This document shows, in pieces, positions 2,218-42,035 of a stretch of DNA of 42,774 nt. The stretch is from a virus: IMG/VR virus record IMGVR_UViG_3300031372_000018, positions 1-42,774 of that record; one strand, 5' to 3'. Position 1 is the first letter of the stretch, and each line of letters begins with the position of its first letter. Position numbers and translations under genes: made by a program. The notes beneath the pieces were generated by a model, which did not search any database, had not been told where the DNA came from, and worked only from the letters and a program-made list of their open reading frames with translations.

Positions 2218-2814
2218 ATGAATATTGAACAGAAAGCATTGTTTGATCGGCTAACTCAGCTACAGCAAAGAGTTGCCGTAAACGTGCTTTCTGGTATGAC
2301 GCAGAGGCAGGCTTATTATGAAGCTGGAGGGACAGCAGAAAACGAGAAAGCCGCCGATGCAATTGCTTCAAGAATGCTAAGCGACGCTAGGGTAATTGCT
2401 TTCATGGACGCCATGAAGCTGGAGGCCGTTTCCAATGCCGTCATGAGCCGCCAGGAGGCGCTGGAGAAGCTTTCCAATCTTGCGCGCACCGACCTCAAGG
2501 ATCTGGTCGAATTCGGCTCATACGACCTAGGAGAGGACGCAGACGGAAATCCGATTGTGCAGGCTTCCTGGAAGATCAAGGATTCGGCATTGCAGGACCC
2601 GGCGAAGATGTCCGCCATCTCCGAGCTGACAGCTGGCAAGGAAGGCATCAAGATCAAGACGCACTCGCCGATAACTGCTATCCAGCAACTCGCCAAGATG
2701 CAGGGCTGGGAGTCGGCCAGCAAGCATGAGATCAGCGGACCCAATGGCGGCCCAGTGCTTACCCGCGACGTCAGCGACATGACCGATGATGAGCTAGCTG
2801 CATTCCTGCCATGA
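2218..2814 (+). CDS. terS: Terminase small subunit
   Basis: 198 aa from ATG 2218 (the track ORF starts at TTG 2212). The stop overlaps the terL start (ATGA at 2811). The N-terminal segment LTQLQQRVAVNVLSGMTQRQAYYEAG is HTH-like, as I recall for Terminase_2-type small subunits. Confidence 0.75.
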   Translation: MNIEQKALFDRLTQLQQRVAVNVLSGMTQRQAYYEAGGTAENEKAADAIASRMLSDARVIAFMDAMKLEAVSNAVMSRQEALEKLSNLARTDLKDLVEFGSYDLGEDADGNPIVQASWKIKDSALQDPAKMSAISELTAGKEGIKIKTHSPITAIQQLAKMQGWESASKHEISGPNGGPVLTRDVSDMTDDELAAFLP

Positions 2815-4202
2815 TCAGTAGCGCCGATGCCGCCAAGGAGCTTCTGAGGCGTCGGCAGGCGCGCAAGTCCCTTCTGTCATTCATCTGCTACATCAACCCC
2901 GAATACATCGTCAGCGACTTCTCGATCATGGTCTGCTCGGCCCTGGAGAAGTTCATAGCCGATTGCATGGAGGGAGTGCGTCCCGTCCTGATCCTTCAAG
3001 CACCGCCACAGCACGGCAAGTCGGACATCGTCTCGCGCTACCTGCCAGCGTTCGTGTTTGGTCACTACCAGGATCTGCGCATTGCTGGCCTGTCCTACTC
3101 CAAGGACTTGGCCACCGACATGAACCGTGATGTGCAGCGGATCATGATGTCGCCTGAGTATCACAAGCTATTCCCGGACTCTTCGCTCAATGCTAAGCGA
3201 GCCGTGCACGTCGACATCGAGGCCAAGCGCAACAGCGAGACATTCGAATTGGTTGGGCACAAGGGCACTTACGTCGGCCAGGGCGTTGGCGGCCCACTGA
3301 CTGGTAAGCGTGTCGACTTCGGCATCATCGATGATCCCATCAAAAACTCCAAGGAAGCGCTGAGCCCCGCCATCAAGGATTCGATCTGGAAGTGGTACGG
3401 TTCGACCTTCCTGACCCGCCTGAGCAAGAATGCAGGCCACATCATCATGGCTACTCGTTGGGCCACTGACGACCTTTCAGGCCGAGTGCTGGCTGCCAAC
3501 GCTAAGGCAAGGCTACTGAGCTTTCCTGCCATCGATGTCGCTGGCAATGCGCTTATTCCCGAGCTGCATCCTGCCGATAAGCTGCTAGAGACCAAAGAGG
3601 TCATTGGTGATTACTTCTGGTCGGCCATGTACCAGCAGTCGCCTAAGACCATTGGTGGCGCGATCTTCAAGGATGAGGGTGTCAGGTACTACCTGCCCAA
3701 AGATCTACCGACCAAATTCGACAAGATCATCCAATCCTGGGACATGACCTTTAAGGACTCGGAAGGCACAGACTATGTTGCGGGCCAGGTTTGGGCAAAA
3801 CTTGGGTCGAACGTCTACCTTATCGATCGCAAGAAGGAGCGCATGTCGTTCACCAAGTCCAAGCAGGCAGTAGTTGATATGACGGCCAGGCATCCCCAGG
3901 CAATGCGCAAGCTGATCGAAGACAAGGCCAATGGCCCTGCTATCATTGACTCGCTCAAGAATGAGATCCACGGCATAATCCCGGTAGAGCCAGATGGCAG
4001 CAAGATAGCTCGCGCGCACGCTGTGACAGCTGTGTGGGAGGCTGGCAACGTATGGCTACCACATCCTGACATCGCGCCATGGGTTAAGGAATTCGTCGAC
4101 GAAGTGACAACCTTCCCCGCAGGCGCGCACGATGACGAGGTTGATGCCATGACGCAGGCGCTGCGAGACCTGTATAGTGCCAAGCGTGGATTCTTCGGTT
4201 AA
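2811..4202 (+). CDS. terL: Terminase large subunit
   Basis: 463 aa. Walker A-like QAPPQHGKS, Walker B-like VDFGIIDDP, and the C-terminal nuclease acidic motif AGAHDDEVDAMTQAL. Confidence 0.9.
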   Translation: MISSADAAKELLRRRQARKSLLSFICYINPEYIVSDFSIMVCSALEKFIADCMEGVRPVLILQAPPQHGKSDIVSRYLPAFVFGHYQDLRIAGLSYSKDLATDMNRDVQRIMMSPEYHKLFPDSSLNAKRAVHVDIEAKRNSETFELVGHKGTYVGQGVGGPLTGKRVDFGIIDDPIKNSKEALSPAIKDSIWKWYGSTFLTRLSKNAGHIIMATRWATDDLSGRVLAANAKARLLSFPAIDVAGNALIPELHPADKLLETKEVIGDYFWSAMYQQSPKTIGGAIFKDEGVRYYLPKDLPTKFDKIIQSWDMTFKDSEGTDYVAGQVWAKLGSNVYLIDRKKERMSFTKSKQAVVDMTARHPQAMRKLIEDKANGPAIIDSLKNEIHGIIPVEPDGSKIARAHAVTAVWEAGNVWLPHPDIAPWVKEFVDEVTTFPAGAHDDEVDAMTQALRDLYSAKRGFFG

Positions 4203-4222: not shown

Positions 4223-5725
4223 ATGTGGCCGTTCAGCAAGAAACAGACTCCGGCCAGCGATGTGGCTGCTCCGACTGCAAAGGGCGTGTTCAGCACTGAC
4301 GTTGGCGTGCTGGGCGCGCTCGTCAAGAAGCAGGAGCGGGCTGATATCTATTATCCGCAGCCTGCTGGTGCATTCGCCCAGGATGAGCATTTCAGCCCGA
4401 CTGCTGGCTATCCGCTCAAGGGGCCAAGCTTTGGTGGTGTGCCTGAATCGCAGTTGATGTGGTATGCGAGCCAGTCCTTCATCGGCTACCAGGCGTGCGC
4501 GGTCATCGGTACGCACTGGCTCGTGGACAAGGCCTGCACTACGCCCGCCGAGGATGCTCTGCGGATGGGCTACCAGATCGATTGCGACAGCGCCGAGGCC
4601 GTTGACCTTCTGAACGATGTCGACGAGAAGTACCAGATCGATGCCCACATGAAGGAGTACATCGCCTTCGGTCGCGTGTTCGGTGTTCGCGTTGCACTGT
4701 TCGTGGTTGAGTCGACCGATCCTGAGTACTACATCAAGCCGTTCAATCCAGACGGCGTCGCGCCTGGATCTTATCGCGGCATTAGCCAGGTAGACCCGCA
4801 GTGGATTACCCCCGTGTTGACGCATGCGAACCTAAGCAACCCTGCTGGCAAGGATTTCTATCTGCCGCTGTTCTATCGCATCGGTAGCCAGCTCTATCAT
4901 CGTTCGCACCTGTCGATCTACATCCCCTATCCGGTCACAGACACGCTGAAGCCGATGTATCAGTTCGGCGGCGTCTCTGTGCCCCAGCGGATCTATGAGC
5001 GCGTTTATGCGGCTGAGCGTTCGGCGAATGAGGTGCCGCAGTTGCTGATGACCAAGCGGCTGACTAACCTGAAGGTCAGTGAGGCAGCCATGGCCAGCCC
5101 TGAAGCCCTGGCTGCCAACCTGGAGCAATGGACGCTGCTGCGTGATAACCATGGGGTGCGCGTAGGAGCTGGCGAGGAAGAGGTTAGCCAGATCGACACT
5201 TCCCTTGCTGACCTGCCATCAAGCACCATGCTCAGCTATCAGCTGGTCGCGGCCTGCGCTGGCATCCCCGCCACCAAGCTGATCGAGACCACTCCGATTG
5301 GCTTCGCATCGAGCGGCGAGTACGAGTCCGAGAGCTATCGTCAGGTGCTTGAGTCGGTGCAGAAGCATCTTGATCCGATGCTAAAGGGTCACTATCTGCG
5401 CATGATGCGATCCGATGTAGCGCCATCGCTTGGAGTTGACCCGATGAAGGTTGGAATAAAGTGGGCGCCACTGGATAGCCCGACTGCTGCCGAGGCTGCA
5501 GACGTGGCGCTGAAGAAAGCGCAGACCGATCAGATCTACGTCGCCATCCAGGCCATTGACGGCCAGGACGTGCGCACCAAGCTCAAGGATGATGAGGATA
5601 GCCAGTATCAGAACCTGGCTGACATTGAGGATCCGCTCAATGTGCCTCAGGGCAACGTTGACCCATTGACGGGCGAGCCTGTAGCTGAGACTATAGAGCC
5701 TCAAGTAAATGAGGGGGTTTTGTGA
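4223..5725 (+). CDS. Portal protein (DUF1073-like)
   Basis: 500 aa directly after terL, with an AGGAG RBS. Size and position are typical of portals. The family assignment is recalled, not searched. Confidence 0.8.
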   Translation: MWPFSKKQTPASDVAAPTAKGVFSTDVGVLGALVKKQERADIYYPQPAGAFAQDEHFSPTAGYPLKGPSFGGVPESQLMWYASQSFIGYQACAVIGTHWLVDKACTTPAEDALRMGYQIDCDSAEAVDLLNDVDEKYQIDAHMKEYIAFGRVFGVRVALFVVESTDPEYYIKPFNPDGVAPGSYRGISQVDPQWITPVLTHANLSNPAGKDFYLPLFYRIGSQLYHRSHLSIYIPYPVTDTLKPMYQFGGVSVPQRIYERVYAAERSANEVPQLLMTKRLTNLKVSEAAMASPEALAANLEQWTLLRDNHGVRVGAGEEEVSQIDTSLADLPSSTMLSYQLVAACAGIPATKLIETTPIGFASSGEYESESYRQVLESVQKHLDPMLKGHYLRMMRSDVAPSLGVDPMKVGIKWAPLDSPTAAEAADVALKKAQTDQIYVAIQAIDGQDVRTKLKDDEDSQYQNLADIEDPLNVPQGNVDPLTGEPVAETIEPQVNEGVL

Positions 5726-6457: not shown

Positions 6458-6615
6458 TCGACCTAACCCCATACGCCACCTATACAGGCCTTGCACTGGA
6501 CAAGCTAGGCGCCGACCTTGAGTTGCCAAGGCACTTCGGCGAGTGCGATGGAAGCTATCGAGGCCGGATGATCGCCAGGCTTGTGCGGAATATCCAGGCG
6601 AGCACTGATGCCTAA
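6454..6615 (+). CDS. Hypothetical protein (53 aa)
   Basis: ATG 6454 overlaps the upstream stop (ATGA), in frame with track ORF 6406..6615. Confidence 0.5.
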   Translation: MIDLTPYATYTGLALDKLGADLELPRHFGECDGSYRGRMIARLVRNIQASTDA

Positions 6616-7486
6616 GAAAATCCGCCTAACCCGCAAGCGACTTCAGTGGGCAGAACCCCGGGCGGCAACGCTCAGGGGTTCGCCATTGGTCGCTCCTGCA
6701 GCCACCGCAGCGAAGTACTCAGCCGAACTTGAGCGCATGGTCCAGGCTATGCGCAAAGAGTACGACAGTGAGCTGCGTGGGCTGTTTAAGCAGTTGGGCT
6801 CGCAGATTGGTCCAGATACCCTGGCGCAGGATGCTAGCCTTGCGAGTCAGGCGCGGATCTTGTTCTCGTGGTTGTCGACCAAGTACGCAAAGCTGTTTGC
6901 GTCCAGGGCGTCGACCATCACCGAGCGCATGATCAGTGGCGCCTCCAAGGCAAGCCAGGTGCAGCTTGGCGAATCGCTCAAGAAGATCAGTGGTGGGCTG
7001 ACCATCAAGGTTGCGGACATGCCAGGTGATCTTGCAGATCGGCTGACTGCATCGACCGCCGAGAATGTCGGGCTGATCAAGTCCATCCAGGCGCAGTACC
7101 ACGAGAAAATCTCGCAAACGGTTCTTCGATCGATCCAGGCGGGCGGCAATGGTTCGCAGGACATCTTTGAGCAGATCCGGCACATAGATGGCGTCACCGA
7201 AAATCGGGCGAAGTTAATTGCTATCGACCAGACTCGCAAGGTCACGACAGCGATGAATGTCGAGCGCGCGGCTTCGGCGGGAATCAAGAAGTTTGAGTGG
7301 CTGCACTCAGGCGGCGGTGCTGATCCGCGAAGGCTACATCTCGACTACGATGGGCAGATCTTCGACTACGACAAGCCGCCTGTGATCGATGAGCGGACTG
7401 GTGAGCGTGGGTATCCAGGGCAGCTACCCAATTGCAGATGCGCCATGATTCCGGTTATCTCTTTTGGAGAAGAAGAGAATGGCTAG
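6608..7486 (+). CDS. Head morphogenesis protein, Mu gpF / SPP1 gp7-like
   Basis: 292 aa from ATG 6608. The C-terminal GYPGQLPNCRCAMIPV is typical of Phage_Mu_F minor head proteins. The gene lies in the portal-proximal position. Confidence 0.8.
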   Translation: MPKKIRLTRKRLQWAEPRAATLRGSPLVAPAATAAKYSAELERMVQAMRKEYDSELRGLFKQLGSQIGPDTLAQDASLASQARILFSWLSTKYAKLFASRASTITERMISGASKASQVQLGESLKKISGGLTIKVADMPGDLADRLTASTAENVGLIKSIQAQYHEKISQTVLRSIQAGGNGSQDIFEQIRHIDGVTENRAKLIAIDQTRKVTTAMNVERAASAGIKKFEWLHSGGGADPRRLHLDYDGQIFDYDKPPVIDERTGERGYPGQLPNCRCAMIPVISFGEEENG

Positions 7487-7673
7487 CAAACAGACGCTGA
7501 AGATGCAGCAAGAGATCCTTGCCAAGGTTTATGAGCTTATTGGCAGGGAATTCCCCGATCCGGCAAAGCTGGTTTGCAATGCCGTGACGATCACTATCGA
7601 GGCTGATGAGCGCGGTCTATTTGTAGACGTGAAAGAACGACTGATGCCTATTGAGCCTGCTACTGATGAGTGA
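7479..7673 (+). CDS. Hypothetical protein (64 aa)
   Basis: ATG 7479 follows GAAGAAGAG and overlaps the Mu-F-like stop. It is the last ORF before the ORF-free region. Confidence 0.6.
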   Translation: MASKQTLKMQQEILAKVYELIGREFPDPAKLVCNAVTITIEADERGLFVDVKERLMPIEPATDE

Positions 7674-8162
7674 TAGTATCAAAGCCATGCTTCTGGCATA
7701 TGAGCCAACTTCGTAAAGTTTGCCCGGTGTAGACCTCCTGCACCACTCGCCAAGGGCGCGATACGATGAATATGCAAGCCTGGGCCAAGTCATGCTGGTA
7801 TCCTCGCCAGTGGCGAAAGAGGGGAAAAGATCAGGGCCCGCAGACGCGGATCGTCTTTATCGGAAAGCCCCGAGTACCGGAGTACAGCGGCTAAACCCAA
7901 CGGACTAACCAAACGTCATGCGGGGCTTTACCGATGCAGATGTAGCGAAAGCCAGATAGACTGACGAGCTTAGTCGTTCCAATGGACGATGCAGGATGAT
8001 GGGCGGTTCAACACCTCCAGCTATGACTCAGATCTCAATCCTGTGCATTTGTGTCAACGGTGAATAGTTCAACTCGCATTGCGCAGAGTCAGCGCCAACC
8101 AGGTATTGGCGAGCTAACCTGATCTGGCACAGGCACCGTGTAGGACTGTCGAAAGGCAGTAG
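7674..8162 (+). ncRNA. Candidate structured non-coding RNA or leader of unknown class
   Basis: About 490 nt with only one track ORF of 60 aa or more (7720..7908, TTG start, no RBS). Local hairpins sit at 7804-7816 and 8093-8111, and a GAAA-loop hairpin at 8145-8160. A 12-14 bp long-range helix pairs 7859-7872 with 7921-7935. The stretch ends at a strong intrinsic terminator. Confidence 0.3.
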
Positions 8163-8190
8163 GCCCAGCCCTAAACCAGCTGGGCTTTTT
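8163..8190 (+). terminator. Rho-independent terminator
   Basis: GCCCAGC (8163-8169) pairs with GCTGGGC (8179-8185) around a 9-nt loop, followed by TTTTT (8186-8190). Confidence 0.8.
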
Positions 8191-8209
8191 CATGCCCACC
8201 GAAAACCAT

Positions 8210-8238
8210 TTGACACCCGATAGTTACTATCCTATAGT
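8210..8238 (+). promoter_or_regulatory. Sigma70-like promoter with palindromic operator (cassette 1)
   Basis: TTGACA (8210-8215), 17-nt spacer, TATAGT (8233-8238). The spacer contains the perfect inverted repeat GATAGT-T-ACTATC (8219-8231). Confidence 0.75.
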
Positions 8239-8265
8239 CCTCCTACCACCAGAGAGGACACCATC

Positions 8266-8484
8266 ATGCAATACAATCAGCTCGATCAAGACAGGCGCAC
8301 TGAGAAGGCTAATCTGACCATTGCTCAATGCATCCAGCGCTCCAGCAATCCCATCCAGGCATCGATCGCGAGCTTCGTTCGCCGAGAGATCAACCTGCAC
8401 GAAAAGACCTTCTTCTTCGAAGACGGCAGCTTCATCAAATTCAATGTGACCTATACGGTTTCGGGTACGGGGGTGGCGAAATGA
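8266..8484 (+). CDS. Hypothetical protein (72 aa)
   Basis: First ORF after the promoter, with RBS AGAGAGGA. Confidence 0.65.
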   Translation: MQYNQLDQDRRTEKANLTIAQCIQRSSNPIQASIASFVRREINLHEKTFFFEDGSFIKFNVTYTVSGTGVAK

Positions 8485-8524
8485 CTATGCGCGTCGGTGG
8501 GCTTTGGGAATGCGAGGTGGCGGT

Positions 8525-8707
8525 ATGACCGGCAAGAAGTGGTTCTATTGGCTGGGCAAGCTTCACGCAACGCGCGACCTTGGCCGGTACCCCCATTGCA
8601 GCTGGCCCGATTGGGCTTGTGAGGCATACGTCGAGGGCTGGGTAGAAGGTTTCTACATGGACGCCTCGCAGCGTCTGGCGTTTTGCAGAGCAGGAGAAGG
8701 GAAATGA
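8525..8707 (+). CDS. Hypothetical Trp/Cys-rich protein (60 aa)
   Basis: ATG 8525 with a GAGGTGG RBS, in frame with track ORF 8504..8707. Confidence 0.55.
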   Translation: MTGKKWFYWLGKLHATRDLGRYPHCSWPDWACEAYVEGWVEGFYMDASQRLAFCRAGEGK

Positions 8708-9099
8708 GTTTATCTGACGAGATTCAGCTGCCACGACTTGATAGCCTGGCTGATATCCCATACGCCCAGGAAGCCCCAGCCAGCTGGGACCCGGACTATC
8801 GGAAAATATGGCAAGAGCTTCAGGTGGCGAACCGCAATAAGACCCAGCTCGGCGGACACATCCGGGAGCTTCGATCAAGGCTTTCCCAATCGATCGCCCA
8901 GCGCGATGAAGGGTTGGCGCGGGAGGCGGAGTTGGTCGAGGCTCTGCGACAGGCGAAATGCCACATCGCCAACGCCCAGTTCGCACTGAGCAAGGGAAAT
9001 CCAAGCCATGGCTGGCTGCCACATATTCGCCAAGGCCTGTACGAAGCAAAGGCATCGCTGGCTAAACACGGCTGCGCGGATGGGGAGAAGGCGGAATGA
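8704..9099 (+). CDS. Hypothetical coiled-coil protein (131 aa)
   Basis: ATG 8704 (ATGA overlap) with RBS GGAGAAGGG. Heptad-like helical sequence. Confidence 0.65.
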   Translation: MSLSDEIQLPRLDSLADIPYAQEAPASWDPDYRKIWQELQVANRNKTQLGGHIRELRSRLSQSIAQRDEGLAREAELVEALRQAKCHIANAQFALSKGNPSHGWLPHIRQGLYEAKASLAKHGCADGEKAE

Positions 9100-9374
9100 A
9101 AATAGCGATATTGGGGATGGGTAATCCTAGCGTTAGGGTCTCGGCAATCATCGAAGAGCTAAATAAACAGTGGCCTGGCGCTGAAATTGTTTTTGTCGAC
9201 GAGACGGACGAAGTAAGCATGGCCGACATCAAGGGCGACGCATTTGATGCGATTGCGCTGCATGAAGCGCCCATTATCCCACCCTACCTGGGCCAGTTCG
9301 ATCACAACTACGATGGGATTAGGCGTAAAGGTAGGGGCGAACGCAAACGCAATAAATCTAACAGGTGGCGATAA
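9096..9374 (+). CDS. Hypothetical protein with basic C-terminal tail (92 aa)
   Basis: ATGA coupling at the start. The N-terminal MKIAILGMG looks like a beta-alpha-beta start. The tail is RRKGRGERKRNKSNRWR. Confidence 0.65.
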   Translation: MKIAILGMGNPSVRVSAIIEELNKQWPGAEIVFVDETDEVSMADIKGDAFDAIALHEAPIIPPYLGQFDHNYDGIRRKGRGERKRNKSNRWR

Positions 9375-9469
9375 TGACCATCCCACGCAAAACCCTTATC
9401 GGCGCCACACTGGCAAGTCTGTGCATGTGGGCCGTCGGCTACGCAGCCTGGCAGGCGGTGTTCTCATGA
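9374..9469 (+). CDS. Micro-ORF, single-pass membrane peptide (31 aa)
   Basis: My own translation is MTIPRKTLIGATLASLCMWAVGYAAWQAVFS. It has a TAATG overlap upstream and an ATGA overlap downstream. It is below the ORF-track length cutoff. Confidence 0.45.
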   Translation: MTIPRKTLIGATLASLCMWAVGYAAWQAVFS

Positions 9470-9789
9470 GCGAGCTGACCATTATAGGCCTGCAGTCCTT
9501 GGTAGCCTCTCTGCGACACGAGCTGAAGCTTGTGAAGGCTCAGCGCGATCGGCTGATGGATGCTAAACCAAGACCAAAAATTAAGCCTCTAATTGAGGTC
9601 GGCACCAAGAGAGATGGCGCAGTTATCACTGCGCACAATTGCGGCCTTCATGTGCTCAAGTGCCGCTGTGGCGCCATATTCCGCAGGGGACGAGAGGCGC
9701 TCATAAAGGATCAACCCTGGCGCTGTAAGACCTGCGTCAACGACAACCACAGGGCAAACACGCTAGAAACAATGGCGGAAATGAAATGA
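9466..9789 (+). CDS. Hypothetical protein with C-terminal Cys cluster (107 aa)
   Basis: ATG 9466, in frame with track ORF 9244..9789. It has a coiled-coil N-terminus followed by HNCGLHVLKCRCG...WRCKTC, which may be a zinc ribbon. Confidence 0.6.
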   Translation: MSELTIIGLQSLVASLRHELKLVKAQRDRLMDAKPRPKIKPLIEVGTKRDGAVITAHNCGLHVLKCRCGAIFRRGREALIKDQPWRCKTCVNDNHRANTLETMAEMK

Positions 9790-9974
9790 CATACGATCAT
9801 TGGAACACTGCCGACATCCTTCCGCCGGTCGGATGCCCGATAGTTGTTATGCGCGCCGATGGGCCCGCGAAAGCCGAGCGAGTGGCGCACATCTCGAAGA
9901 AGGATCGACTGATGGAGTATCGGATGGAGGATGGTGAAGTGGTGCTGGGGCGATTACCTTGGACCTATCCATAA
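9786..9974 (+). CDS. Hypothetical protein (62 aa), DUF551-like by recall
   Basis: ATGA coupling. The WNTADILPPVGCPIVVM segment resembles a small phage domain I recall as DUF551. Confidence 0.55.
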   Translation: MTYDHWNTADILPPVGCPIVVMRADGPAKAERVAHISKKDRLMEYRMEDGEVVLGRLPWTYP

Positions 9975-9976
9975 GA

Positions 9977-10006
9977 GAGGGCGCCATTGCGGCGCCCTTC
10001 TTGCTT
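9977..10006. terminator. Bidirectional intrinsic terminator between convergent genes
   Basis: GGGCGCC (9979-9985) pairs with GGCGCCC (9991-9997), with T-rich runs on both strands. It sits between the stops at 9974 (+) and 10007 (-). Confidence 0.7.
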
Positions 10007-11044
10007 CTACCACAGGACCTCTTGGCCTCCGCTGTAGGCGAATGTTGGGGAGCCTGCAGTGTTCACCGTTCGGATCCTGACGTACTTGCCTGCAGGAATG
10101 AATGCGTTCAGCGGCACCGTCTGCACTGTGTTCGCATTGAGCACCCCGCCCACTCCGCTCGTGCCCGAGAACGCCTGCACAAGGTTTGTAGTCATGGCTG
10201 CGTTGTCAGCGTATTCGAGGATGACTGTGCCGCGTGATCCTGCGACCAGCAGCGCGGTTACCGTCACGTCTACGCCATAGTAGACCGTTGCGGGTCTTGT
10301 GGCGCTGAGCTGGAAGGCCGTGTTCAGTGGGCGGGTTGCTGGCGATGCAGACGGTGATATTGCAGGACCCTGCGGCCCGATTGCGCCTGTTGCGCCTGTG
10401 TCGCCCTTATCGCCTTTCGGGCCAGTAGCGCCTTGAGGTCCTGCAACAGTGCTTGCAGGACCCATAGCTCCGGTTGCGCCCGTATCACCTTTCGGTCCAG
10501 GGATTCCTTGCGGACCCATCGCGCCCGTCTCGCCCCTTGCTCCAGGGTCTCCCGTAAACCCTCTAGGTCCGACCTGGCCATCTGGGCCTACAGGACCAGC
10601 TGCGCCCGTGCTACCAGTTGGGCCTACTGCGCCTTGCGGTCCAGTATCGCCCCTGTCACCCTTGGGTCCGGTATCCCCTTGAGGCCCTTGAGGCCCCGCA
10701 ACGCCTTGCGCCCCATTCGAACCGTTTGAGCCTGGATCTCCCTTAGGGCCTTGCGCTCCAGTGTCACCTTTAGGTCCTGCCTCACCCTGCTGGCCTGGAT
10801 CGCCATTCATCCCGGTAGGTCCGCGCGGGCCAGCCATGCCGTCGTTGCCGGGGTCCCCTTTGTCACCTTTTGCGCCACGATCTCCCTTTTCACCTTGTGG
10901 TCCAGCTGGCCCGGTATCACCCTTCGGACCTGCTGGCCCGACATTCTCAGCGGTATCAGTCCGCTCTTCGAGGATTGCGATTCGCTCACTAAGATCCGAC
11001 ATCTCATCCTGGGAAACGCCAGGGTCGTGAATTGTGCCGGTCAT
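10007..11044 (-). CDS. Collagen-like triple-helix repeat protein with globular C-terminal domain
   Basis: 345 aa. A short N-terminal coiled coil (LSERIAILEERT) is followed by about 54 uninterrupted G-X-Y triplets, a 4-residue break, and about 9 more triplets (hand count). A beta-rich C-terminal domain of about 115 aa follows. Confidence 0.85.
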   Translation of the reverse strand: MTGTIHDPGVSQDEMSDLSERIAILEERTDTAENVGPAGPKGDTGPAGPQGEKGDRGAKGDKGDPGNDGMAGPRGPTGMNGDPGQQGEAGPKGDTGAQGPKGDPGSNGSNGAQGVAGPQGPQGDTGPKGDRGDTGPQGAVGPTGSTGAAGPVGPDGQVGPRGFTGDPGARGETGAMGPQGIPGPKGDTGATGAMGPASTVAGPQGATGPKGDKGDTGATGAIGPQGPAISPSASPATRPLNTAFQLSATRPATVYYGVDVTVTALLVAGSRGTVILEYADNAAMTTNLVQAFSGTSGVGGVLNANTVQTVPLNAFIPAGKYVRIRTVNTAGSPTFAYSGGQEVLW

Positions 11045-11316
11045 GATGGAGTGTCCGCCTGGATGTAGAGTCGAAGGCCCATTGAGCAGCGGATGAAGCA
11101 GCCAGGCACCCCTTCGTCGACAATGAATTCCGAATCAGCCTTTGTGCGCCTGCCGAAGGTTTCGGATGCTGGTGGTTTCTGTGCAGTCCTTCGCGTCAGC
11201 ACCAGCCCGCTGGATTGGTTCTGGCACTGTAGCCTGGTGCCAACCGGAACCTTGGCTAGCTCGTATAGATCCTGCCAGCCGGTGATCTGGTTAATGATTA
11301 TGTGCTCGCTGGACAT
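11041..11316 (-). CDS. Hypothetical protein co-transcribed with the collagen-like gene (91 aa)
   Basis: Track ORF whose stop overlaps the collagen-like start (ATGA). Confidence 0.6.
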   Translation of the reverse strand: MSSEHIIINQITGWQDLYELAKVPVGTRLQCQNQSSGLVLTRRTAQKPPASETFGRRTKADSEFIVDEGVPGCFIRCSMGLRLYIQADTPS

Positions 11317-11387
11317 GGCGTCCCTTCCGATGGTGTGGGTTCTGGCGAAGTATAAATTCTGAGCAGTCGACCGTCTATCGAAAGGGG

Positions 11388-11416
11388 TTGCGGTGCGATA
11401 GTTATTATCTTATAGT
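11388..11416 (+). promoter_or_regulatory. Sigma70-like promoter with operator-like near-palindrome (cassette 2)
   Basis: TTGCGG (11388-11393), 17-nt spacer, TATAGT (11411-11416). The spacer contains GATAGTTATTATC (11397-11409), which is one mismatch from the 8219-8231 palindrome. Confidence 0.7.
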
Positions 11417-11451
11417 CTGATCATCGAAACGAACCGTAGAGGGCTCAACCG

Positions 11452-11649
11452 ATGAACGCAGCATCCTTCGCAAGCAAAGAAGTAACCCGCCGCGCAGTGC
11501 AGATGTGCTACGACCTGGCCCATGCAGACTTCAAGTGGTATCGCGAATTCCGCAAGATGGGCGACCTGCGCTATGCAGAATTGAGCCTACGTTCCGGCAT
11601 GGAGTATCGCGCCAAGGGCAAGCAGGTCATGCGCGAGGCTCAGCGGTGA
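11452..11649 (+). CDS. Hypothetical protein (65 aa)
   Basis: First ORF after the promoter, with RBS GAGGG. Confidence 0.65.
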   Translation: MNAASFASKEVTRRAVQMCYDLAHADFKWYREFRKMGDLRYAELSLRSGMEYRAKGKQVMREAQR

Positions 11650-11969
11650 AGCGCATCCCGGCAGAGATTGCTAGCCTCATGGCTGATCAATACAGGTCGG
11701 GGCGAACGGCGGCGCAGATTTCAGCGTCAACCGGATTCTCTCCGGATGCAGTCCGCTATCATCTGCGCAAATCGGGATGTTTCGTCTACGGCAGAGATCG
11801 AGCAAGCAGGATCACGCCAGAGTTTGCGGCTGCAGCGCTAAAGATGCATCGAGGCGGCATATGCTGGAAGAGTGTCGCTCGTCTGCTGGGGTTCAATACT
11901 CAGGTGTTACAGGTCGAGGCCTGGAAATATAGAGACTCACAAATCAATCAAGAGAGGGAAAGGAAATGA
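11646..11969 (+). CDS. DNA-binding protein with two HTH-like segments (107 aa)
   Basis: GTG 11646 overlaps the upstream stop (GTGA). The HTH-like segments are SGRTAAQISASTGFSPDAVRYHLRKSG and GGICWKSVARLLGFNTQVLQVE. Confidence 0.55.
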   Translation: MKRIPAEIASLMADQYRSGRTAAQISASTGFSPDAVRYHLRKSGCFVYGRDRASRITPEFAAAALKMHRGGICWKSVARLLGFNTQVLQVEAWKYRDSQINQERERK

Positions 11970-12514
11970 AACTAATAGACATTTTGGCGCGCGAGTTGAA
12001 GGAGTGGCCGAAAGGTTTTGATGATGTTGGTCAGGCAGATAGCGGAGCTTTACATCTACCCGGAATAGGTATGCATGAGAAGCATACAGATGAAACCTAC
12101 ACTCATGCCGATGATTGGTTTACATCCATCGTCACCCGCGCCCAATGGCAAGCCGCAGTCGATGCGCTGAAGGCGGATGAGCAGCCAGCATTTATTCGGG
12201 AGGGGCTGCCTAATATCGGAACGACCTGCGAAGGCCGTGTAAAGAATGGCGGCGATTGGCGCACCTACACGGTCAAGGCAATGTCCACTGAATATCTTAT
12301 TGTCTGGTGTGAAGAAGACCTGGCTGAAACTCCTATTCGCCACTCTTACTGGGAATTTCGCCCCATCCGCACCGCCGAGCAGATCGCGGCGGAAGAGCGC
12401 AGCAAGGCTATTAGCACGATGGTGGATGCTTGCAGCAATCCTGAGTGGGTAACCACGTACGAGACGTGCGCGGCCATCTACGACGCTGGCTACCGCAAGC
12501 AGGTGCAGCCATGA
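11966..12514 (+). CDS. Conserved phage protein, function unknown (182 aa)
   Basis: ATGA coupling. The N-terminal MKLIDILARELKEWP and C-terminal IYDAGYRK motifs recur in Pseudomonas-type phage proteins I recall. Confidence 0.7.
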   Translation: MKLIDILARELKEWPKGFDDVGQADSGALHLPGIGMHEKHTDETYTHADDWFTSIVTRAQWQAAVDALKADEQPAFIREGLPNIGTTCEGRVKNGGDWRTYTVKAMSTEYLIVWCEEDLAETPIRHSYWEFRPIRTAEQIAAEERSKAISTMVDACSNPEWVTTYETCAAIYDAGYRKQVQP

Positions 12515-12846
12515 GATTGACGCGCAATCAGCAGGCGGTGCTAAATGAGCTTCGCAAGATCGGTCGCGAGAACTTCTACCGCTATCGAGAGAGCAGTTCG
12601 CACCTGTACGAGGAGAATCGGCTGCGTATTGCCAAGGGCGATCAGTTTTGCGCGCATGGCTTGGGTGGCTTGTCATATCAGGTTGGATATCGCCTGAATA
12701 TGACAGCCGGTGCGGTGCTAAGCATCTTTAAGGCACTTGAGCTCAAAGGGTTGGTGCTTCGCGAAACTTATAATCCTGGCTATCAACGCCCACTCTATTG
12801 GTGGCCGGTTGGCCTGGCCGAAGAATTGAGTGAGGTGCAGCCATGA
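12511..12846 (+). CDS. Possible winged-helix protein (111 aa)
   Basis: ATG 12511 (ATGA overlap). The segment AGAVLSIFKALELKGLVLRE is winged-helix-like. Confidence 0.55.
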   Translation: MRLTRNQQAVLNELRKIGRENFYRYRESSSHLYEENRLRIAKGDQFCAHGLGGLSYQVGYRLNMTAGAVLSIFKALELKGLVLRETYNPGYQRPLYWWPVGLAEELSEVQP

Positions 12847-12998
12847 CCTGGCTCCTCGTCCTGGCTATAAACTACGGCTCAGCTACCCTAGGCCCGACCG
12901 AATTCCCAACCGAGCGCTCCTGCATTGCTGCGGGCGAGTCTCGGCGGTATATGGGTAAGCCGGTTCAGTTTGTCTGTAAGGAGATTCGCAATGTATGA
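12843..12998 (+). CDS. Micro-ORF with hydrophobic N-terminus (51 aa)
   Basis: My own translation is MTWLLVLAINYGSATLGPTEFPTERSCIAAGESRRYMGKPVQFVCKEIRNV. ATGA overlap upstream and ATGTATGA overlap downstream. Confidence 0.45.
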   Translation: MTWLLVLAINYGSATLGPTEFPTERSCIAAGESRRYMGKPVQFVCKEIRNV

Positions 12999-13176
12999 CA
13001 TCGGGTATAAGATTCTTCTGACAAGCGCATTATTCTTCGTGATTTTTCTTTTGGTGGGATTGCTGGCGACAAGCAAGCCAAGGCAGCCAAAGGTGGTAGA
13101 TACGTGTGCATCAGTGGTTACGGTTTGCTTTTTTGGGATTATTGCCGGATTCCTTATGATGATATGGGGCAGATAA
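12991..13176 (+). CDS. Small membrane protein, two TM segments (61 aa)
   Basis: ATG 12991 with an AAGGAG RBS. Hydrophobic segments are ILLTSALFFVIFLLVGLLA and VVTVCFFGIIAGFLMMIW. Confidence 0.6.
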   Translation: MYDIGYKILLTSALFFVIFLLVGLLATSKPRQPKVVDTCASVVTVCFFGIIAGFLMMIWGR

Positions 13177-13412
13177 TGGCTATCAACTTCCACCTAACCC
13201 CAGTCATCGGCATCTTCAAGGTGCCCAAGCGAGCCAGCCAGGAGCGCATCGAGACTGACGCCCAGCGCAAGATCTCTGAGCTGAGCGAGAACAGCGTCAA
13301 GGCTGGCGGGAATGGGTATCGATTCGTGCGCATGGACGACGGGTATGCTATCGCCGAAGAGGTTGGGTCGACGCGGACGGTGGCGTATCAGGTTCACTAT
13401 GGGATGAGTTGA
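13176..13412 (+). CDS. Hypothetical protein (78 aa)
   Basis: ATG 13176 (TAATG overlap), in frame with track ORF 13104..13412. Confidence 0.6.
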   Translation: MAINFHLTPVIGIFKVPKRASQERIETDAQRKISELSENSVKAGGNGYRFVRMDDGYAIAEEVGSTRTVAYQVHYGMS

Positions 13413-13413
13413 G

Positions 13414-13605
13414 ATGGAAACGATATCTGGAGCGGGCAGGTCGGACGCCTATATTTTGGGATTCAATACCCCGCTATGTAGTGAGGACGACAACCCTTGG
13501 ACGCTTTGCAGTGAGAGCGGACATGACTGGCTTGAAGGCCAAATGGATAGGGAGAGAGCTTGCGATCAATTGGGATGGGATAGCGTCCCGGTAATGGTTA
13601 AGTAG
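13414..13605 (+). CDS. Hypothetical acidic protein (63 aa)
   Basis: ATG start. Preferred over the overlapping TTG-started frame at 13409. It ends inside the terminator stem. Confidence 0.45.
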   Translation: METISGAGRSDAYILGFNTPLCSEDDNPWTLCSESGHDWLEGQMDRERACDQLGWDSVPVMVK

Positions 13606-13627: not shown

Positions 13628-13656
13628 TTGCCCCCTGAAAATCACAGTGATAGACT
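13628..13656 (+). promoter_or_regulatory. Possible promoter for the capsid/tail operon
   Basis: TTGCCC (13628-13633), 17-nt spacer, TAGACT (13651-13656). Confidence 0.4.
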
Positions 13657-13687
13657 CAATGCATTGACAATCAAGGCTCAATGCAAA

Positions 13688-15016
13688 ATGCCTAAAGAAT
13701 CGACTCGCTCGATTGACCATAACGGCTTCATGCTGATTCGGGATAACCCTATCTCGAAGATCGGCGTATACCCGTACTTGGGCAGCGAGATCCCGGTTCC
13801 AGGCCTTGAGCCGAACAAGATCTATGGCGTTTACCGTTCCGCCGAGGAGCTTGGCGATCAGGCAGCAATCGACTCATTCAAGCTGCAGCCCTTTATCGAT
13901 GACCATGAGGTGCTAGGCCAGGGCGGCACTCCAGCCGAGCGCAAAGGCATTCAAGGCTACATGGGCGAGCAGATCCACTTCGATGGCACCTACCTGCGCG
14001 GCAACATCAAGATCCCATCGAGCGCGGCTCAGTCGCTGATCAGCGCAGGCAAAACCGAGCTATCCCCCGCATACCGCTGCAAGTGGGTGCCGGAAGAAGG
14101 ATCGTTTGGCGGTAAGCCCTACCAATTTACGCAGCGTCAAATACGCGGAAACCACTTGGCCTTGGTAGATGAGGGCCGAACCGGTCCAGATGTTGCCATC
14201 CAAGACAGTGCTGTAATGCTTAACGACCCACACATGTCCATGACCCTAGATAGCGCGGAGCTAATCAATATGGAATTCACCCCAGAGCAACTGGCACAGA
14301 TCGAGGCGATGCTCGCTAAGATGATGGCCGCCAAGACTACCGGGGATGAAGACCCGGCAGAACAACCAAGCGAAGATGCAGACTCCGTGGTGGAGCCGAT
14401 GGTCGAGGTCACTCCTGAGCAGGAAGATGCAGCTCAAGAGACCGTCGCTGCTGCCTCCGAGGCTGAGAGCGCGCTGGAAGCTGCAAGCGAAGCCCTGGCT
14501 GAAGTTGCCGCCGCTGCCGAGCAGGTGGTTGCCACCGACTCGAAGGATAAGGTCAAGCAGCAGGCTGCCAAAACCAAGTTGGCGACCGCCAAGGCTAAGC
14601 ACGCCAAGCTCCAAAAGGTAGCCACCGACTCGGTCGCCAAGCTGCGCACCGTGAACGACAAGTCCGGCGTCGCCGCAGACCGAGCCATCATCAAGCAACT
14701 GCAAGCCCAGATCGCCGAGCTGAGCAAGCCTCCTGTCGCCCTGGACTCCAGTAAGCTGATGGCCGAGATCGCCGATCGTGATGCCCTGGCAGGCCAACTC
14801 TCCAAGTTCGTCGGCTCGTTTGACCACTCGCGCATGACCTGCGATGCAGTGGCTCAGTACGGCGTCGAAAAGCTGGGTCTGAAGACCGCCAAAGGTACCG
14901 AGCGCATCGCTCTGAACGCCTGGATGCATGGCCGCAAGCCTGACCACGAAACCATCCACATTGCTTCCGATTCCAAGAAGACCGGCAGCGCATTGCAAGC
15001 ATGGGGTAAAAAATAA
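13688..15016 (+). CDS. Scaffolding protein (DUF2213-like N-terminal domain; possible protease role)
   Basis: 442 aa from ATG 13688. The N-terminal half is globular. The second half is Ala/Glu/Lys-rich and helical (AAQETVAAASEAESALEAASEALAEVAAAAEQ...). It lies immediately upstream of the capsid genes. Confidence 0.65.
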   Translation: MPKESTRSIDHNGFMLIRDNPISKIGVYPYLGSEIPVPGLEPNKIYGVYRSAEELGDQAAIDSFKLQPFIDDHEVLGQGGTPAERKGIQGYMGEQIHFDGTYLRGNIKIPSSAAQSLISAGKTELSPAYRCKWVPEEGSFGGKPYQFTQRQIRGNHLALVDEGRTGPDVAIQDSAVMLNDPHMSMTLDSAELINMEFTPEQLAQIEAMLAKMMAAKTTGDEDPAEQPSEDADSVVEPMVEVTPEQEDAAQETVAAASEAESALEAASEALAEVAAAAEQVVATDSKDKVKQQAAKTKLATAKAKHAKLQKVATDSVAKLRTVNDKSGVAADRAIIKQLQAQIAELSKPPVALDSSKLMAEIADRDALAGQLSKFVGSFDHSRMTCDAVAQYGVEKLGLKTAKGTERIALNAWMHGRKPDHETIHIASDSKKTGSALQAWGKK

Positions 15017-37059: not shown

Positions 37060-37743
37060 TCAAGGCATTTCAGGCCAAAACCTGTTGCCCTTCTTAATGT
37101 TTTCCAGCTTTGAAATTATTTGTAGATTCGCTTCGCAGTGAAGCCCACAGACAAGCTTAGAGTTAAGCGGGACTATATGGTCTACTTGGTAATCTTTTCC
37201 CGATATGCGCGAGGCCAGATAAGCTCTCCTGTAAATCTTATCTATTGCCTGATGGTCAGCCCATCCAGGTACTGCCCGGATCTTAGCAGACCTCCTTTTT
37301 GCATTTATTCTACGAATAACGAATCTGTTATTTTTACGATAATTCCGATCAAATTCAGAAATCTTCTTTTTATTTTTTGCTCGGTACTTAAGCTTGGATA
37401 TTAAAATTGATTTTTGCTGATCATGATCAATATTTCTTCTGAGACTAAGAACATAATCTCGGTTACTCCAATACCAATATTTGCTTCTAAGGGCTACCAA
37501 GCGCCTGTTTATCCTGGAATATTCTGCCCTTTGCTCGGATATCTGGTCTGCATTCTTTACCCTATACGCCTCCATCCTTTCTTTTATCGCGATCTTGTTA
37601 GCCAATGCGTAAGATTTGTATTTTTCAGCCGCGCAAGATTTGCAGTAGGACTGAACACCGCTAGCCCTCCGCTTACATTTGCTGAAACTTTCTAAAGTCT
37701 TGAACGTGTCGCACGATACACAAAGGCTAAAGGTTGACATCAT
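37060..37743 (-). CDS. HNH endonuclease (free-standing, homing-type), AT-rich
   Basis: About 227 aa. HNH core is VDHIVPLNSKLVCGLHCEANLQIISKLENIKKGN, with N-terminal CxxC...CxxC. A hand count gives 29 G+C in 100 nt at 37301-37400, against 57 in 100 at 36101-36200. The exact start is uncertain (ATG 37743 or 37740). Confidence 0.8.
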   Translation of the reverse strand: MMSTFSLCVSCDTFKTLESFSKCKRRASGVQSYCKSCAAEKYKSYALANKIAIKERMEAYRVKNADQISEQRAEYSRINRRLVALRSKYWYWSNRDYVLSLRRNIDHDQQKSILISKLKYRAKNKKKISEFDRNYRKNNRFVIRRINAKRRSAKIRAVPGWADHQAIDKIYRRAYLASRISGKDYQVDHIVPLNSKLVCGLHCEANLQIISKLENIKKGNRFWPEMP

Positions 37744-38626
37744 CAGCCTCCGGCACATCAGCGATCGCCATCAGCAACTCAGCCAGGATTCCCGCATCAA
37801 CCTCGACACGCTCAGCGCTGTTGCCGAGAATTATAGACTCCAAGAGCGACGGCTCAATGGACTTGTAGACAGCCCTGGCAGCCCATTCCAGCGCATCGGG
37901 CATCTTTGCCTTGACCTTCTTGACCTTTGGCTCTTTCGTAGCGGCAGCGGCTGTTACACGGTCTTTACCAAGCTCTGCAGCTACATCCTTGCGGCGCTCG
38001 ATCTCGGCTGGAGCATCCGCCTTGAATTCACGAATGATCTTGACAGCTTCGGTTGGCGAAACCACGCCAGCGCTGACAGCCTGGTGCACCTCTTCGCCGC
38101 CATCTGCGAGCAGTAACATCTGGTCGACGTGCGCACGCGAGCGATTCACCATCTTGGCGATCTCGGCAGCGCTGAGCGAATCCATGTCGCGCATGTCGCG
38201 GTAGACCTTGGCCTCACCTACCTTGCTCAAGGGGAGCTGGTTGTTGCTGGTCACGATGCGCGCGCGACGCTCGGCCATGGTGCCTTTGAATGCGGTGGCG
38301 CTGATGTATTCCAGCGGCTCACCGTCGACCTGAGCGCCTTCAAGCAGCAGTTCGCGGTAGCAGGCAGTGCGGCAGTGACCCTCAACCACCTCGGTGGCGC
38401 CCGTCTCAGGATTGATGGCCACTTCGATCGGAGGCAGCTTGCCGCCAGAGAGAACAAAGGTCTTCATGGCGTCGATGTGCGCGCGCAGCTCTGCAGGATC
38501 GTTGAAGCGGCGACTGTCATTGAAACCCTCAACGATGACCAGGCCGTCGATCTTGACGCGGAACAGGTCGCCACGTTTGACGATCTTGTCGCTGACCAGC
38601 TTGTTCATGGTGATTGGTGCGTTCAT
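37727..38626 (-). CDS. ParB/Srx N-terminal domain protein
   Basis: 299 aa from ATG 38626 (RBS GAGAGG). The track start at 38683 lies upstream of the predicted -10. Motifs are PPIEVAINPETGATEVVEGHCRTACY and the HTH-like SAAEIAKMVNRSRAHVDQML. Confidence 0.65.
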   Translation of the reverse strand: MNAPITMNKLVSDKIVKRGDLFRVKIDGLVIVEGFNDSRRFNDPAELRAHIDAMKTFVLSGGKLPPIEVAINPETGATEVVEGHCRTACYRELLLEGAQVDGEPLEYISATAFKGTMAERRARIVTSNNQLPLSKVGEAKVYRDMRDMDSLSAAEIAKMVNRSRAHVDQMLLLADGGEEVHQAVSAGVVSPTEAVKIIREFKADAPAEIERRKDVAAELGKDRVTAAAATKEPKVKKVKAKMPDALEWAARAVYKSIEPSLLESIILGNSAERVEVDAGILAELLMAIADVPEADDVNL

Positions 38627-40898: not shown

Positions 40899-41117
40899 CT
40901 AGTCCTCGGGGTAGGGGTTGGGTTCGGCTGGGTCACTGGCCTCAATAGATCCGCTTCCACCACAATCAGGGCAAGAATCCATGTTAGGTTCCGGAGGCTG
41001 CCATTCGCCGAAATATTGATAACCTCCTACGAATACCTCTCCTGAACCGCCGCAAGTCTCGCACTCATCATCCTCTGGCGGGTCTAGTGGGCGGTCGCCG
41101 ATGTAGATGCGGTTCAT
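40899..41117 (-). CDS. Mini zinc-finger protein with two DnaJ-type CxxCxGxG motifs (72 aa)
   Basis: CETCGGSG and CPDCGGSG motifs in an acidic, Pro-rich context. ATGA overlap with the HNH stop. Confidence 0.65.
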   Translation of the reverse strand: MNRIYIGDRPLDPPEDDECETCGGSGEVFVGGYQYFGEWQPPEPNMDSCPDCGGSGSIEASDPAEPNPYPED

Positions 41118-41707
41118 TGGTCATTCCCTCTGACTTTTAGATTCTTTGGAAGTGCCGCCCAACTAGCTGGATGCATAGCGCCCTTGCTGGTATTGCATGC
41201 AGGACAAAGCAGCATGAGGTTAGATGGCCAGTTGGTACCGCCCAACTTTATTGGGACTATATGATCAACATGATAGCGCTTAGATATATTCGTGGAACAC
41301 CAGAAGCATCTGCTGAATTGAGACCGCATCATATTAACTATATCTTGCTTCGAAAAAAATCCCTCAAGTTTTGACCTTCTTTTTACTCTAGCTATCATCT
41401 CATCCCTATTGGCTTGATAATGTTTCCTCTGAGACTCCCTTGTCTTCTCAGGAAAATTTGTTCTATACCTAGCCATATATTCGCGCTTTTTCTGTAGATG
41501 CTTTTGGCTGTTTATCCTACTAATTTCAGCATGAAACAAAGGATCTGAAGCATACCTATCTCTCATTTTTATCCTATGACAAGATACACAATTTCCATTT
41601 TTTGAATACCTTATATCTATATGTTTTCTGCAGCAAGGCAGCCCAGTAAAATAATGAGAAAGCCCAAACTCTATTGCCACCCTTCTTGATATTAAATGAG
41701 CAATCAT
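41114..41707 (-). CDS. HNH endonuclease (second copy, AT-rich)
   Basis: 197 aa from ATG 41707 (the track ORF extends to 41860 across the upstream gene end). HNH core is VDHIVPIKLGGTNWPSNLMLLCPACNTSKG. A hand count gives 40 G+C in 100 nt at 41401-41500. Confidence 0.75.
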   Translation of the reverse strand: MIAHLISRRVAIEFGLSHYFTGLPCCRKHIDIRYSKNGNCVSCHRIKMRDRYASDPLFHAEISRINSQKHLQKKREYMARYRTNFPEKTRESQRKHYQANRDEMIARVKRRSKLEGFFSKQDIVNMMRSQFSRCFWCSTNISKRYHVDHIVPIKLGGTNWPSNLMLLCPACNTSKGAMHPASWAALPKNLKVRGNDQ

Positions 41708-41744
41708 GGTCGGTAGCCTGGGGTTTTTATGGTCCAGATGCGTT

Positions 41745-42035
41745 TCATTGCTCCAGCCTCTTATGGAATGATTCCAAAGCCTGCTTGCGGCGGTTGATAA
41801 AGTCCTTCTCGACCTTAGCGTACTTGGAGCCCTTACCCGCTCGATCGCTAAAATATTCAAGCCAGAGCTTTGGTGAAAATCTGCAGAACTCCTCGATCTG
41901 CATACGAAGGAATTTGCATTTCATTTGCAGTGCAAATTCCTCTTTTTGCATGTCCAGCATTTCCGAGCGCAGAGTCTCAAGCTCATTCTTGAGAGCATTG
42001 ATGGTTGCGTCCTTTGACCGTGATGAAAATATCAT
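41745..42035 (-). CDS. Hypothetical coiled-coil protein (96 aa)
   Basis: Track ORF with ATGA coupling. Sequence is heptad-like. Confidence 0.6.
   Translation of the reverse strand: MIFSSRSKDATINALKNELETLRSEMLDMQKEEFALQMKCKFLRMQIEEFCRFSPKLWLEYFSDRAGKGSKYAKVEKDFINRRKQALESFHKRLEQ

Follow-up and report, generated by a model that had tools for sequence, protein, structure and literature searches.

We analyzed the gene-free stretch at positions 7674-8190 of a 42,774 nucleotide (nt) phage sequence (IMG/VR record IMGVR_UViG_3300031372_000018, hereafter the window) and found that it is a non-coding string of conserved, covarying RNA modules whose relatives lie in Pseudomonas prophages and phages. The reading that we favor, and hold with about even confidence, is that this element is a composite 'RNA island' yielding a stable, probably processed phage RNA of the transfer RNA (tRNA)-island kind, which acts in trans. 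The first-pass annotation of this DNA had proposed a structured RNA of unidentified class ending in a terminator. The structure was borne out by covariation, but the element consists of separable modules rather than one fold.

Relatives and covarying modules

The family was defined by sequence comparison. A blastn search against cultured phages revealed 88.6% identity between window 8054-8140 and intergenic, unannotated DNA of Pseudomonas phage Medea1, whose host is P. syringae pathovar tomato. Medea1 is the sole cultured phage with this core, the remaining cultured-phage matches being tRNA-Trp alone. Further copies were collected by exact-pattern scans, and the copies come from 35 IMG/VR contigs, 17 metagenome contigs and four genome records, namely three Pseudomonas species representatives and one gammaproteobacterial metagenome-assembled genome. 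The core is present at 56 loci in Pseudomonas prophages, viral contigs and phage Medea1 (48 distinct sequences when flanks are counted), and 8 further loci carry 5′ modules only. Two Paenibacillus matches in the genome scan were discarded as chance because they are located within coding sequence, most matches of a 16-mer scan with GCCAGTGGCGAAAGAG likewise fell by chance in coding sequence, and a plasmid collection contained no match to the element. The first-pass annotation had named a lack of relatives with covarying structure as counting against its proposal; compensatory changes were found across the family in the core, the 5′ domain and the helix Pa. The features of the window are as follows, with positions of paired strands separated by a slash.

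7674-7695 (+ strand), linker directly after the stop codon of a 64-amino-acid (aa) open reading frame (ORF); possible small hairpin GCCA-TGCTTC-TGGC, read from the sequence
7696-7849 (+ strand), 5′ domain, homologous to positions 5300-5480 of locus L017 and to L075, L086 and L087
7696-7701/7770-7775 (+ strand), H1, helix of the 5′ domain
7711-7715/7762-7766 (+ strand), H2, helix of the 5′ domain
7718-7725/7754-7759 (+ strand), H3, helix of the 5′ domain
7793-7799/7806-7812 (+ strand), H4, helix of the 5′ domain with three compensatory positions
7806-7821 (+ strand), conserved block GCCAGTGGCGAAAGAG within the 5′ domain
7838-7841/7846-7849 (+ strand), H5, hairpin of the 5′ domain
7859-7872/7921-7935 (+ strand), Pa, 14 base pairs (bp) with A7930 bulged, enclosing a 48-nt variable insert
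7874-7885 (+ strand), GTAC-CGGA-GTAC hairpin in the variable insert of Pa, read from the sequence
7933-7942/8046-8055 (+ strand), Pb, GATGCAGATG with CATTTGTGTC, 10 bp with three G.U pairs, the first 3 nt shared with Pa (7936-7942/8046-8052 when these are left to Pa)
8056-8141 (+ strand), core, 86 nt, a three-way junction folded by RNAalifold from the alignment of the family
8058-8062/8134-8138 (+ strand), core P1, closing the three-way junction
8065-8070/8111-8116 (+ strand), core P2, bearing hairpins P3 and P4 (a second junction inside P2)
8072-8077/8083-8089 (+ strand), core P3, hairpin on P2
8094-8098/8106-8110 (+ strand), core P4, hairpin on P2
8118-8121/8130-8133 (+ strand), core P5, abutting the 3′ strand of P1
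8145-8160 (+ strand), GAAA-capped stem, 6 bp with one U.G pair, from sequence and fold
8163-8190 (+ strand), intrinsic terminator with a 7-bp GC-rich stem (8163-8169/8179-8185), a 9-nt loop and a run of five T residues (8186-8190)
8210-8238 (+ strand), sigma-70-type promoter (TTGACA, 17-nt spacer, TATAGT; 11 of 12 consensus matches), serving the next gene block

The core is the most conserved part of the comparison. A covariance model of the family scored it at 108 bits in the window, where the only other match was an 18-nt fragment (E = 1.9), and identity to the window's core is at least 85% in every locus. Among the 17 distinct core sequences drawn from the 56 loci (alignment A2), mean column identity is 95% with near-invariant loops and junctions, 98.4% of cells are paired in the core fold, and both-sided changes occur at six pairs, which fall in four of the five helices. 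None of 500 shuffles came up to these figures, and slid partners gave 27-38% paired. The window's core is the most divergent copy of the family; its helices P1 (GGTG/CACC for GGCG/CGCC), P3 (CTC/GAG for CCC/GGG) and P5 (CCTG/CAGG for CTTG/CAAG) have changed in a compensatory manner. The inverted repeat CGCCAA-(7 nt)-TTGGCG, noted previously at 8093-8111, corresponds to P4. As possible kissing-loop partners or target sites, complements of three core loops were sought in upstream regions, where no consistent site was found; GCCAGAT at window 7951-7957 matches the P5 loop, and this match is not conserved.

Upstream of the core, homology to L017 5300-5555 spans window 7713-7945, with L075, L086 and L087 as further homologs. 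Across these five sequences, RNAalifold and pair counts gave 35 pairs for the 5′ domain, 98.2% paired and 10 of them compensatory, a level of pairing reached in none of 500 shuffles; several conserved U.G pairs work on the + strand only. The hairpin TCGCC-AGT-GGCGA that had been pointed out at 7804-7816 is present in the sequence as part of a conserved block, but it is probably not native because covariation favors other pairings, either H4 or an outer helix 7801-7805/7821-7825 around GCC-AGT-GGC, both of which are supported by covariation. The weak promoter suggested at 7691-7719 overlaps H1-H3, which are conserved and covary as RNA, and the same bases directly follow a tRNA in L017, so that it is unlikely to be a start site. 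No promoter-like site was detected by a consensus scan of the + strand from 6500 to 8200. With an internal promoter unlikely, a transcript would more likely arise by read-through from the operon upstream.

The 12-bp helix with one bulge originally read at 7861-7872/7921-7933 is exactly present, extends to 14 bp and is the family-wide helix Pa. It consists of a conserved base, ATCGG(AAAG)/(CTTTA)CCGAT, and a variable extension, for which we found 38 distinct versions with complementary arms. The variable positions are 90.8% paired, compared with 56.6% (maximum 64%) after the arms had been shuffled between loci. The Pa insert of L023 holds an Rfam-called tRNA (34 bits, gathering score 29) at which ARAGORN makes no call, and a tRNA-like T-arm lies inside Pa in L006, L012, L014, L026 and L028. 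At position 6 of Pa, an A.C mismatch recurs in 11 of the 38 versions (e.g. L001, L005, L025, L037, L039, L040 and L042), with 5′ arm GGAGTGTG facing 3′ arm CACACCCC, and is kept across loci with differing inserts. This mismatch may form a protonated A+.C pair, serve in recognition or reflect shared ancestry.

Pb closes the variable domain between Pa and the core. In the family it reads GATGC(A/G)G(ATG) with (CAT)CTGCATC, and compensatory variants are found in L083 (GATAC/GTATC) and L039. In the window, the partner of GATGCAGATG is also given as CATCTGCATC, the G.U pairs work on the + strand only, and the helix encloses a domain of ~100 nt that is specific to the window, with an interior that has no relative. 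In most family members, the Pb interior contains a hairpin with an invariant GGCTGA loop (e.g. L017 5565-5580), the stem of which covaries in at least four versions (GCGCA/TGCGC, GCCCG/CGGGC, GCCCA/TGGGC and GAGCA/TGCTC), and a second hairpin, GCCGG-AGATCAGCA-CCGGC, lies just 5′ of the Pb 3′ strand; both are absent from the Pb domain of the window. The idea that the variable inserts of Pa and Pb serve as guide RNAs was dropped, as they have no significant match elsewhere in the window (best E = 0.7).

The 6-bp GAAA tetraloop stem and the intrinsic terminator described in the first-pass annotation are both present, and their combined fold amounts to -22.6 kcal/mol. Most family members have the hairpin GCCGG-GAAAGA-CCGGC at the place of the GAAA-capped stem, with the compensatory variant GTCGG/CCGAC, and L015 and L047 share a homologous terminator at the same position. 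The terminator was missed by our consensus scan because the loop limit of the scan is 8 nt. An intrinsic terminator, placed 150-310 nt past the core by one count and 46-310 nt by another, is present at about half of the family loci, where same-strand genes follow; the rest have none. A further 3′ add-on, absent from the window, recurs ~60-170 nt past the core in L006, L010, L011, L013, L022, L030, L031, L033 and others: a hairpin CACTG...CAGTG, a strong Shine-Dalgarno-like AGGAG, an ATG with a near-immediate stop codon (at once or after one codon, e.g. ATGTAA, ATGGACTAG and ATGAAATAG), and then an intrinsic terminator. This add-on may serve regulation as a start-stop element, or may be a small RNA in its own right, and we take it to be reminiscent of the lambda bar minigenes in the PL operon.

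Coding potential, known RNA families and genomic contexts

The absence of a convincing ORF noted in 7674-8265 was confirmed. Each of the six frames contains stop codons, and the longest ORF, 7720-7908 with a TTG start, has no protein relative among phages (tblastn, best E = 0.8). No gene was placed in the gap by gene callers on three identical public contigs. In comparison with the homologous L017 stretch, insertions and deletions measure 8, 19, 2, 2, 3 and 4 nt, and substitutions are spread evenly across codon phases (23/21/25). These stops, indel sizes and codon-phase spread, together with the tblastn result and the absent gene calls, speak against a protein-coding gene and also against a decayed one, which the first-pass annotation had named among the findings that would overturn its proposal.

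We compared the element with Rfam 15, whose 4227 models include GOLLD, ROOL, C4 antisense RNA, tRNA, transfer-messenger RNA (tmRNA), riboswitches and self-cleaving ribozymes. At gathering thresholds the whole window gave 0 matches, and relaxation to E <= 10 in 7400-8500 returned only noise, with E of 2.3 or higher. Scans of 13 family loci yielded only tRNAs and an RT-15 RNA located elsewhere, and a search of 8 family loci at E <= 1 gave no match over the element. ARAGORN detected neither tRNA nor tmRNA in the window. The impression that no known RNA family is recognizable here thus extends to the window and 21 family loci. Literature searches found no description of this RNA family, which is not proof that none exists. 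Taken together, the element represents a new RNA family. Two kinds of Rfam match were seen at a distance from it. The RT-15 RNA (RF03018, 172 bits) occupies L023 7362-7552, ~7 kb from the element, and appears unrelated. Sub-threshold matches to the Trp operon leader (gathering score 41) lie ~1.2 kb downstream of the core in L009 (1412-1524, 34.7 bits) and ~0.9 kb upstream in L032 (1542-1613, 27.5 bits).

The modules are permuted, repeated or dropped from locus to locus. L017, L009 and L044 each have a promoter (TTGACA, 17-nt spacer, GATTAT) that leads directly into the core, which in L017 and L009 is followed by ~340 nt, tRNA-Trp, the 5′ domain with Pa and Pb, and small ORFs, with terminase seen in L017. 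The order of core, tRNA-Trp and 5′ domain in L017 is therefore permuted relative to the window; no tRNA was called by ARAGORN in L044. Pa-type modules stand on both sides of the core in L033 and L039, and L081, L083 and L085-L089 have Pa/Pb modules but no core. In the first two of these, the modules lie between tRNA genes of one array. Transfer RNAs are found in or beside the element in L001, L009, L015, L017, L023, L047, L075, L081, L083 and L085. All tRNAs called in the family loci by ARAGORN or Rfam adjoin the element or lie inside it on the same strand, with the one exception of a tRNA-Ser at a contig end.

The element occupies three unrelated contexts. In lambdoid prophages it belongs to the early-left operon, on the same strand after a cI-type repressor (helix-turn-helix and S24 peptidase) and before genes that include those for RecT and a YqaJ exonuclease; wherever lambdoid loci were inspected, its start coincides with the stop codon of the preceding ORF. 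L017 has it at the head of the late operon, upstream of terminase, the next ORF being ~900 nt from the core. In the window it follows a Mu F-like gene. The core-bearing phages share almost no neighboring protein clusters with the window. The element is on the + strand, as seen from Pb, the 5′ domain, tRNAs, promoters and terminators. Wobble statistics in the core and Pa gave about equal counts of G.U and A.C and were uninformative, which leaves Pb, the 5′ domain and genomic context to decide the strand.

Proposed action of the RNA and alternatives

How might this RNA be made and used? Most likely, it would be transcribed by read-through from the upstream operon for packaging and head morphogenesis, and the transcript would end at the intrinsic terminator at 8163-8190. 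The promoter at 8210-8238, the only such site in 6500-9500, starts 20 nt past this terminator, which indicates that the RNA is the end of one unit rather than the leader of the next. The RNA is probably stable, and it may function whole or be cut into modules, one comprising the 5′ domain with Pa and Pb and the other the 86-nt core with the GAAA hairpin. The RNA would act in trans, and a conserved Pseudomonas factor probably binds to the near-invariant loops and junctions of its core. We favor such a self-contained RNA gene over a signal serving one operon because the core is near-identical in unrelated phages, its contexts vary, module order is free and tRNAs are co-located.

Several observations weigh against this reading. 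Folding energy is too weak as evidence for structure: compared with shuffled sequences, the whole stretch has a z-score of -1.16 on the + strand and -0.18 on the - strand, and the parts range from ordinary to marginal (core -0.8, 5′ domain -1.9, Pa -3.0, hairpin with terminator -3.1). The case for structure is therefore carried by the comparison with relatives, since energy alone would leave the finding weak. The core alignment is itself shallow at its 95% mean column identity, so its compensatory changes may stem from few events, and one-sided changes in the core and Pa produce A.C about as frequently as G.U. Most lambdoid loci, and the window as well, have no nearby tRNA. Neither the surroundings of the element nor the rest of the window yielded a partner, target or complementary site. 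Finally, the terminators and further same-strand genes past the element fit a cis-acting antiterminator equally well.

Such an antiterminator is the main rival, which we consider unlikely yet the most serious of the alternatives. The put RNA of phage HK022, ~70 nt with two tandem stem-loops and present in both early operons, is a processive antiterminator made of RNA only. By analogy, the nascent core would bind RNA polymerase and cause it to read through nearby and later terminators, and a long untranslated stretch, with tRNAs in some phages, would be protected from Rho. The lambdoid element sits where lambda has PL-nutL-N and HK022 has putL, between the repressor and RecT/exonuclease in the stretch from the immunity region to the recombination genes, on the sense strand and upstream of terminators. 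The half of the loci with a terminator past the core followed by same-strand genes would suit this role. L022, moreover, has no promoter-like site between the terminator and the next gene, and in L017/L044 the promoter fires into the core, which is followed by ~1 kb of untranslated RNA and then late genes. Invariant loops would also suit the binding of an invariant host enzyme. However, half of the loci have no terminator past the element that would need overcoming, and the window has a strong dedicated promoter past its terminator, so that the downstream genes need no read-through. A single copy was seen per genome stretch, in contrast to the put sites in both early operons of HK022, and the fold is a P1-closed three-way junction accompanied by extra large modules instead of two tandem stem-loops. 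Module permutation and a place inside tRNA arrays are unexpected for an operon-specific signal.

Another candidate is a small RNA derived from a 3′ untranslated region, in which the core, hairpin and terminator (~135 nt) would base-pair with host or phage mRNAs, possibly with Hfq. This 3′ part ends an operon and carries a U-tailed terminator hairpin of the sort typical for such RNAs, and the invariant loop sequences are possible seeds. We regard this origin as improbable, as the core does not adjoin a terminator in most family members and no complementary site was seen to recur around the element or in the rest of the window.

Less probable again is a new riboswitch, with the core as an aptamer that would sense a host metabolite or signal and control the terminator or short ORF that follows. 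The compact junction fold, covarying stems and invariant junction and loop bases resemble an aptamer, and a terminator, or a Shine-Dalgarno sequence with a tiny ORF, often comes after the core. Nevertheless, no alternative pairing was found between the P1 3′ strand and the terminator, and a stable independent hairpin stands between them. The distance to the terminator ranges from 46 to >300 nt or the terminator is absent, the next ORF in L017 is ~900 nt away, and the window has nothing downstream to regulate before the next promoter.

Conservation at the DNA level, as a recombination linker, an array of protein-binding sites or the inverted repeats of a small mobile element, seems the least probable of all: the element does lie at mosaic junctions and starts at a stop codon in the inspected lambdoid loci, the Pa arms are inverted repeats around variable inserts, and A.C mismatches in Pa are as many as G.U, but compensatory changes fall in short local hairpins and nested junction helices, conserved G.U pairs in Pb and the 5′ domain work on one strand only, the element shares its orientation with tRNAs, promoters and terminators, and the Pa inserts are mutually unrelated, unlike copies of a mobile element.

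Surrounding genes and relation to known phage RNAs

The window is a phage genome with genes for terminase (2811-4202), portal (4223-5725) and a Mu F-like head protein (6608-7486), followed by the 64-aa ORF, whose last base is 7673, directly upstream of the gene-free stretch. A head protease (13628-15016) and tail genes are encoded farther downstream, and a replication module includes ParB, helicase, primase and an exonuclease VIII-like protein. The promoter at 8210-8238 opens a 5-kb block of mostly unknown small genes (8266-13600) that separates the Mu F-like gene from the head protease. In five phages with Mu F-like proteins 41-50% identical to that of the window, the element is absent and the next long ORF follows directly. 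As these relatives have neither such a block nor the element, window 7479-13600 looks like an accessory insertion in the head module, with the RNA at its upstream edge. Within this + strand block, the - strand of 10007-11316 encodes a 345-aa collagen-repeat protein resembling tail fibers and a 91-aa partner, far away from the tail genes. Two HNH/endonuclease VII-like genes on the - strand of the replication module, 37060-37758 and 41114-41860, may encode homing endonucleases.

GOLLD and ROOL are RNAs of phages and prophages found near tRNA islands, and GOLLD has a conserved 3′ part and a variable 5′ part, sometimes with tRNAs in the linker (bioRxiv 10.1101/2024.12.08.627333). The present element resembles both in being non-coding, elaborately folded and borne by phages or prophages, and some of its loci place it by or within tRNA islands, though the window and most lambdoid loci do not. 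The likeness to GOLLD extends to a conserved 3′ core with variable 5′ modules; L023 has its Rfam-called tRNA within Pa, and the modules of L081 and L083 are flanked by tRNAs. The element nevertheless lies outside both families because neither Rfam model matches it, even at E <= 10. It is also smaller (~0.33-0.5 kb compared with 0.58 to >0.8 kb) and belongs to Pseudomonas hosts, and its modules are shuffled among loci as described above.

The tRNA clusters of T4 and other phages encode stable RNAs that are not tRNAs (species 1 and 2). These resemble the element in being structured, non-tRNA, and co-located and presumably co-transcribed with phage tRNAs. We know of no homology between them, and the element differs in being larger and modular and in having no tRNA in most loci, including the window. 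With the lambda nut sites the element shares its genomic position in lambdoid prophages, and the post-core hairpin GCCGG-GAAAGA-CCGGC, with its purine-rich loop, is similar to a boxB stem. Unlike nut, however, no boxA-like sequence was seen on reading the loci, an N-like gene is not consistently adjacent, the 86-nt core has no nut counterpart, and the loop in the window is a plain GAAA tetraloop.

A bolder possibility, which we put forward tentatively as doubtful, is that the core belongs to a new class of phage RNA acting directly on a central host machine, either as a put-like antiterminator or anti-Rho RNA or as a self-assembling tRNA scaffold. The former, directed at Pseudomonas RNA polymerase, would add a second RNA-only system to that of HK022 put and would pass freely from one unrelated phage to another. 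In the latter, the core with Pa and Pb would be a ROOL- or GOLLD-like RNA that carries or presents tRNAs. Either version would amount to a modular RNA 'toolkit', with parts exchanged in the manner of protein domains.

To our knowledge, large structured phage RNAs of unassigned function are few, and GOLLD and ROOL each proved unexpected in architecture. The family described here adds a Pseudomonas example with a cultured representative, Medea1, and its small, highly conserved core suits biochemistry and structure work. Permutable modules able to host an Rfam-called tRNA are unusual, and they make the purpose of RNAs in tRNA islands more tractable. If the core is an RNA-only antiterminator or a decoy for a host factor, it would bear on early-gene control in temperate Pseudomonas phages.

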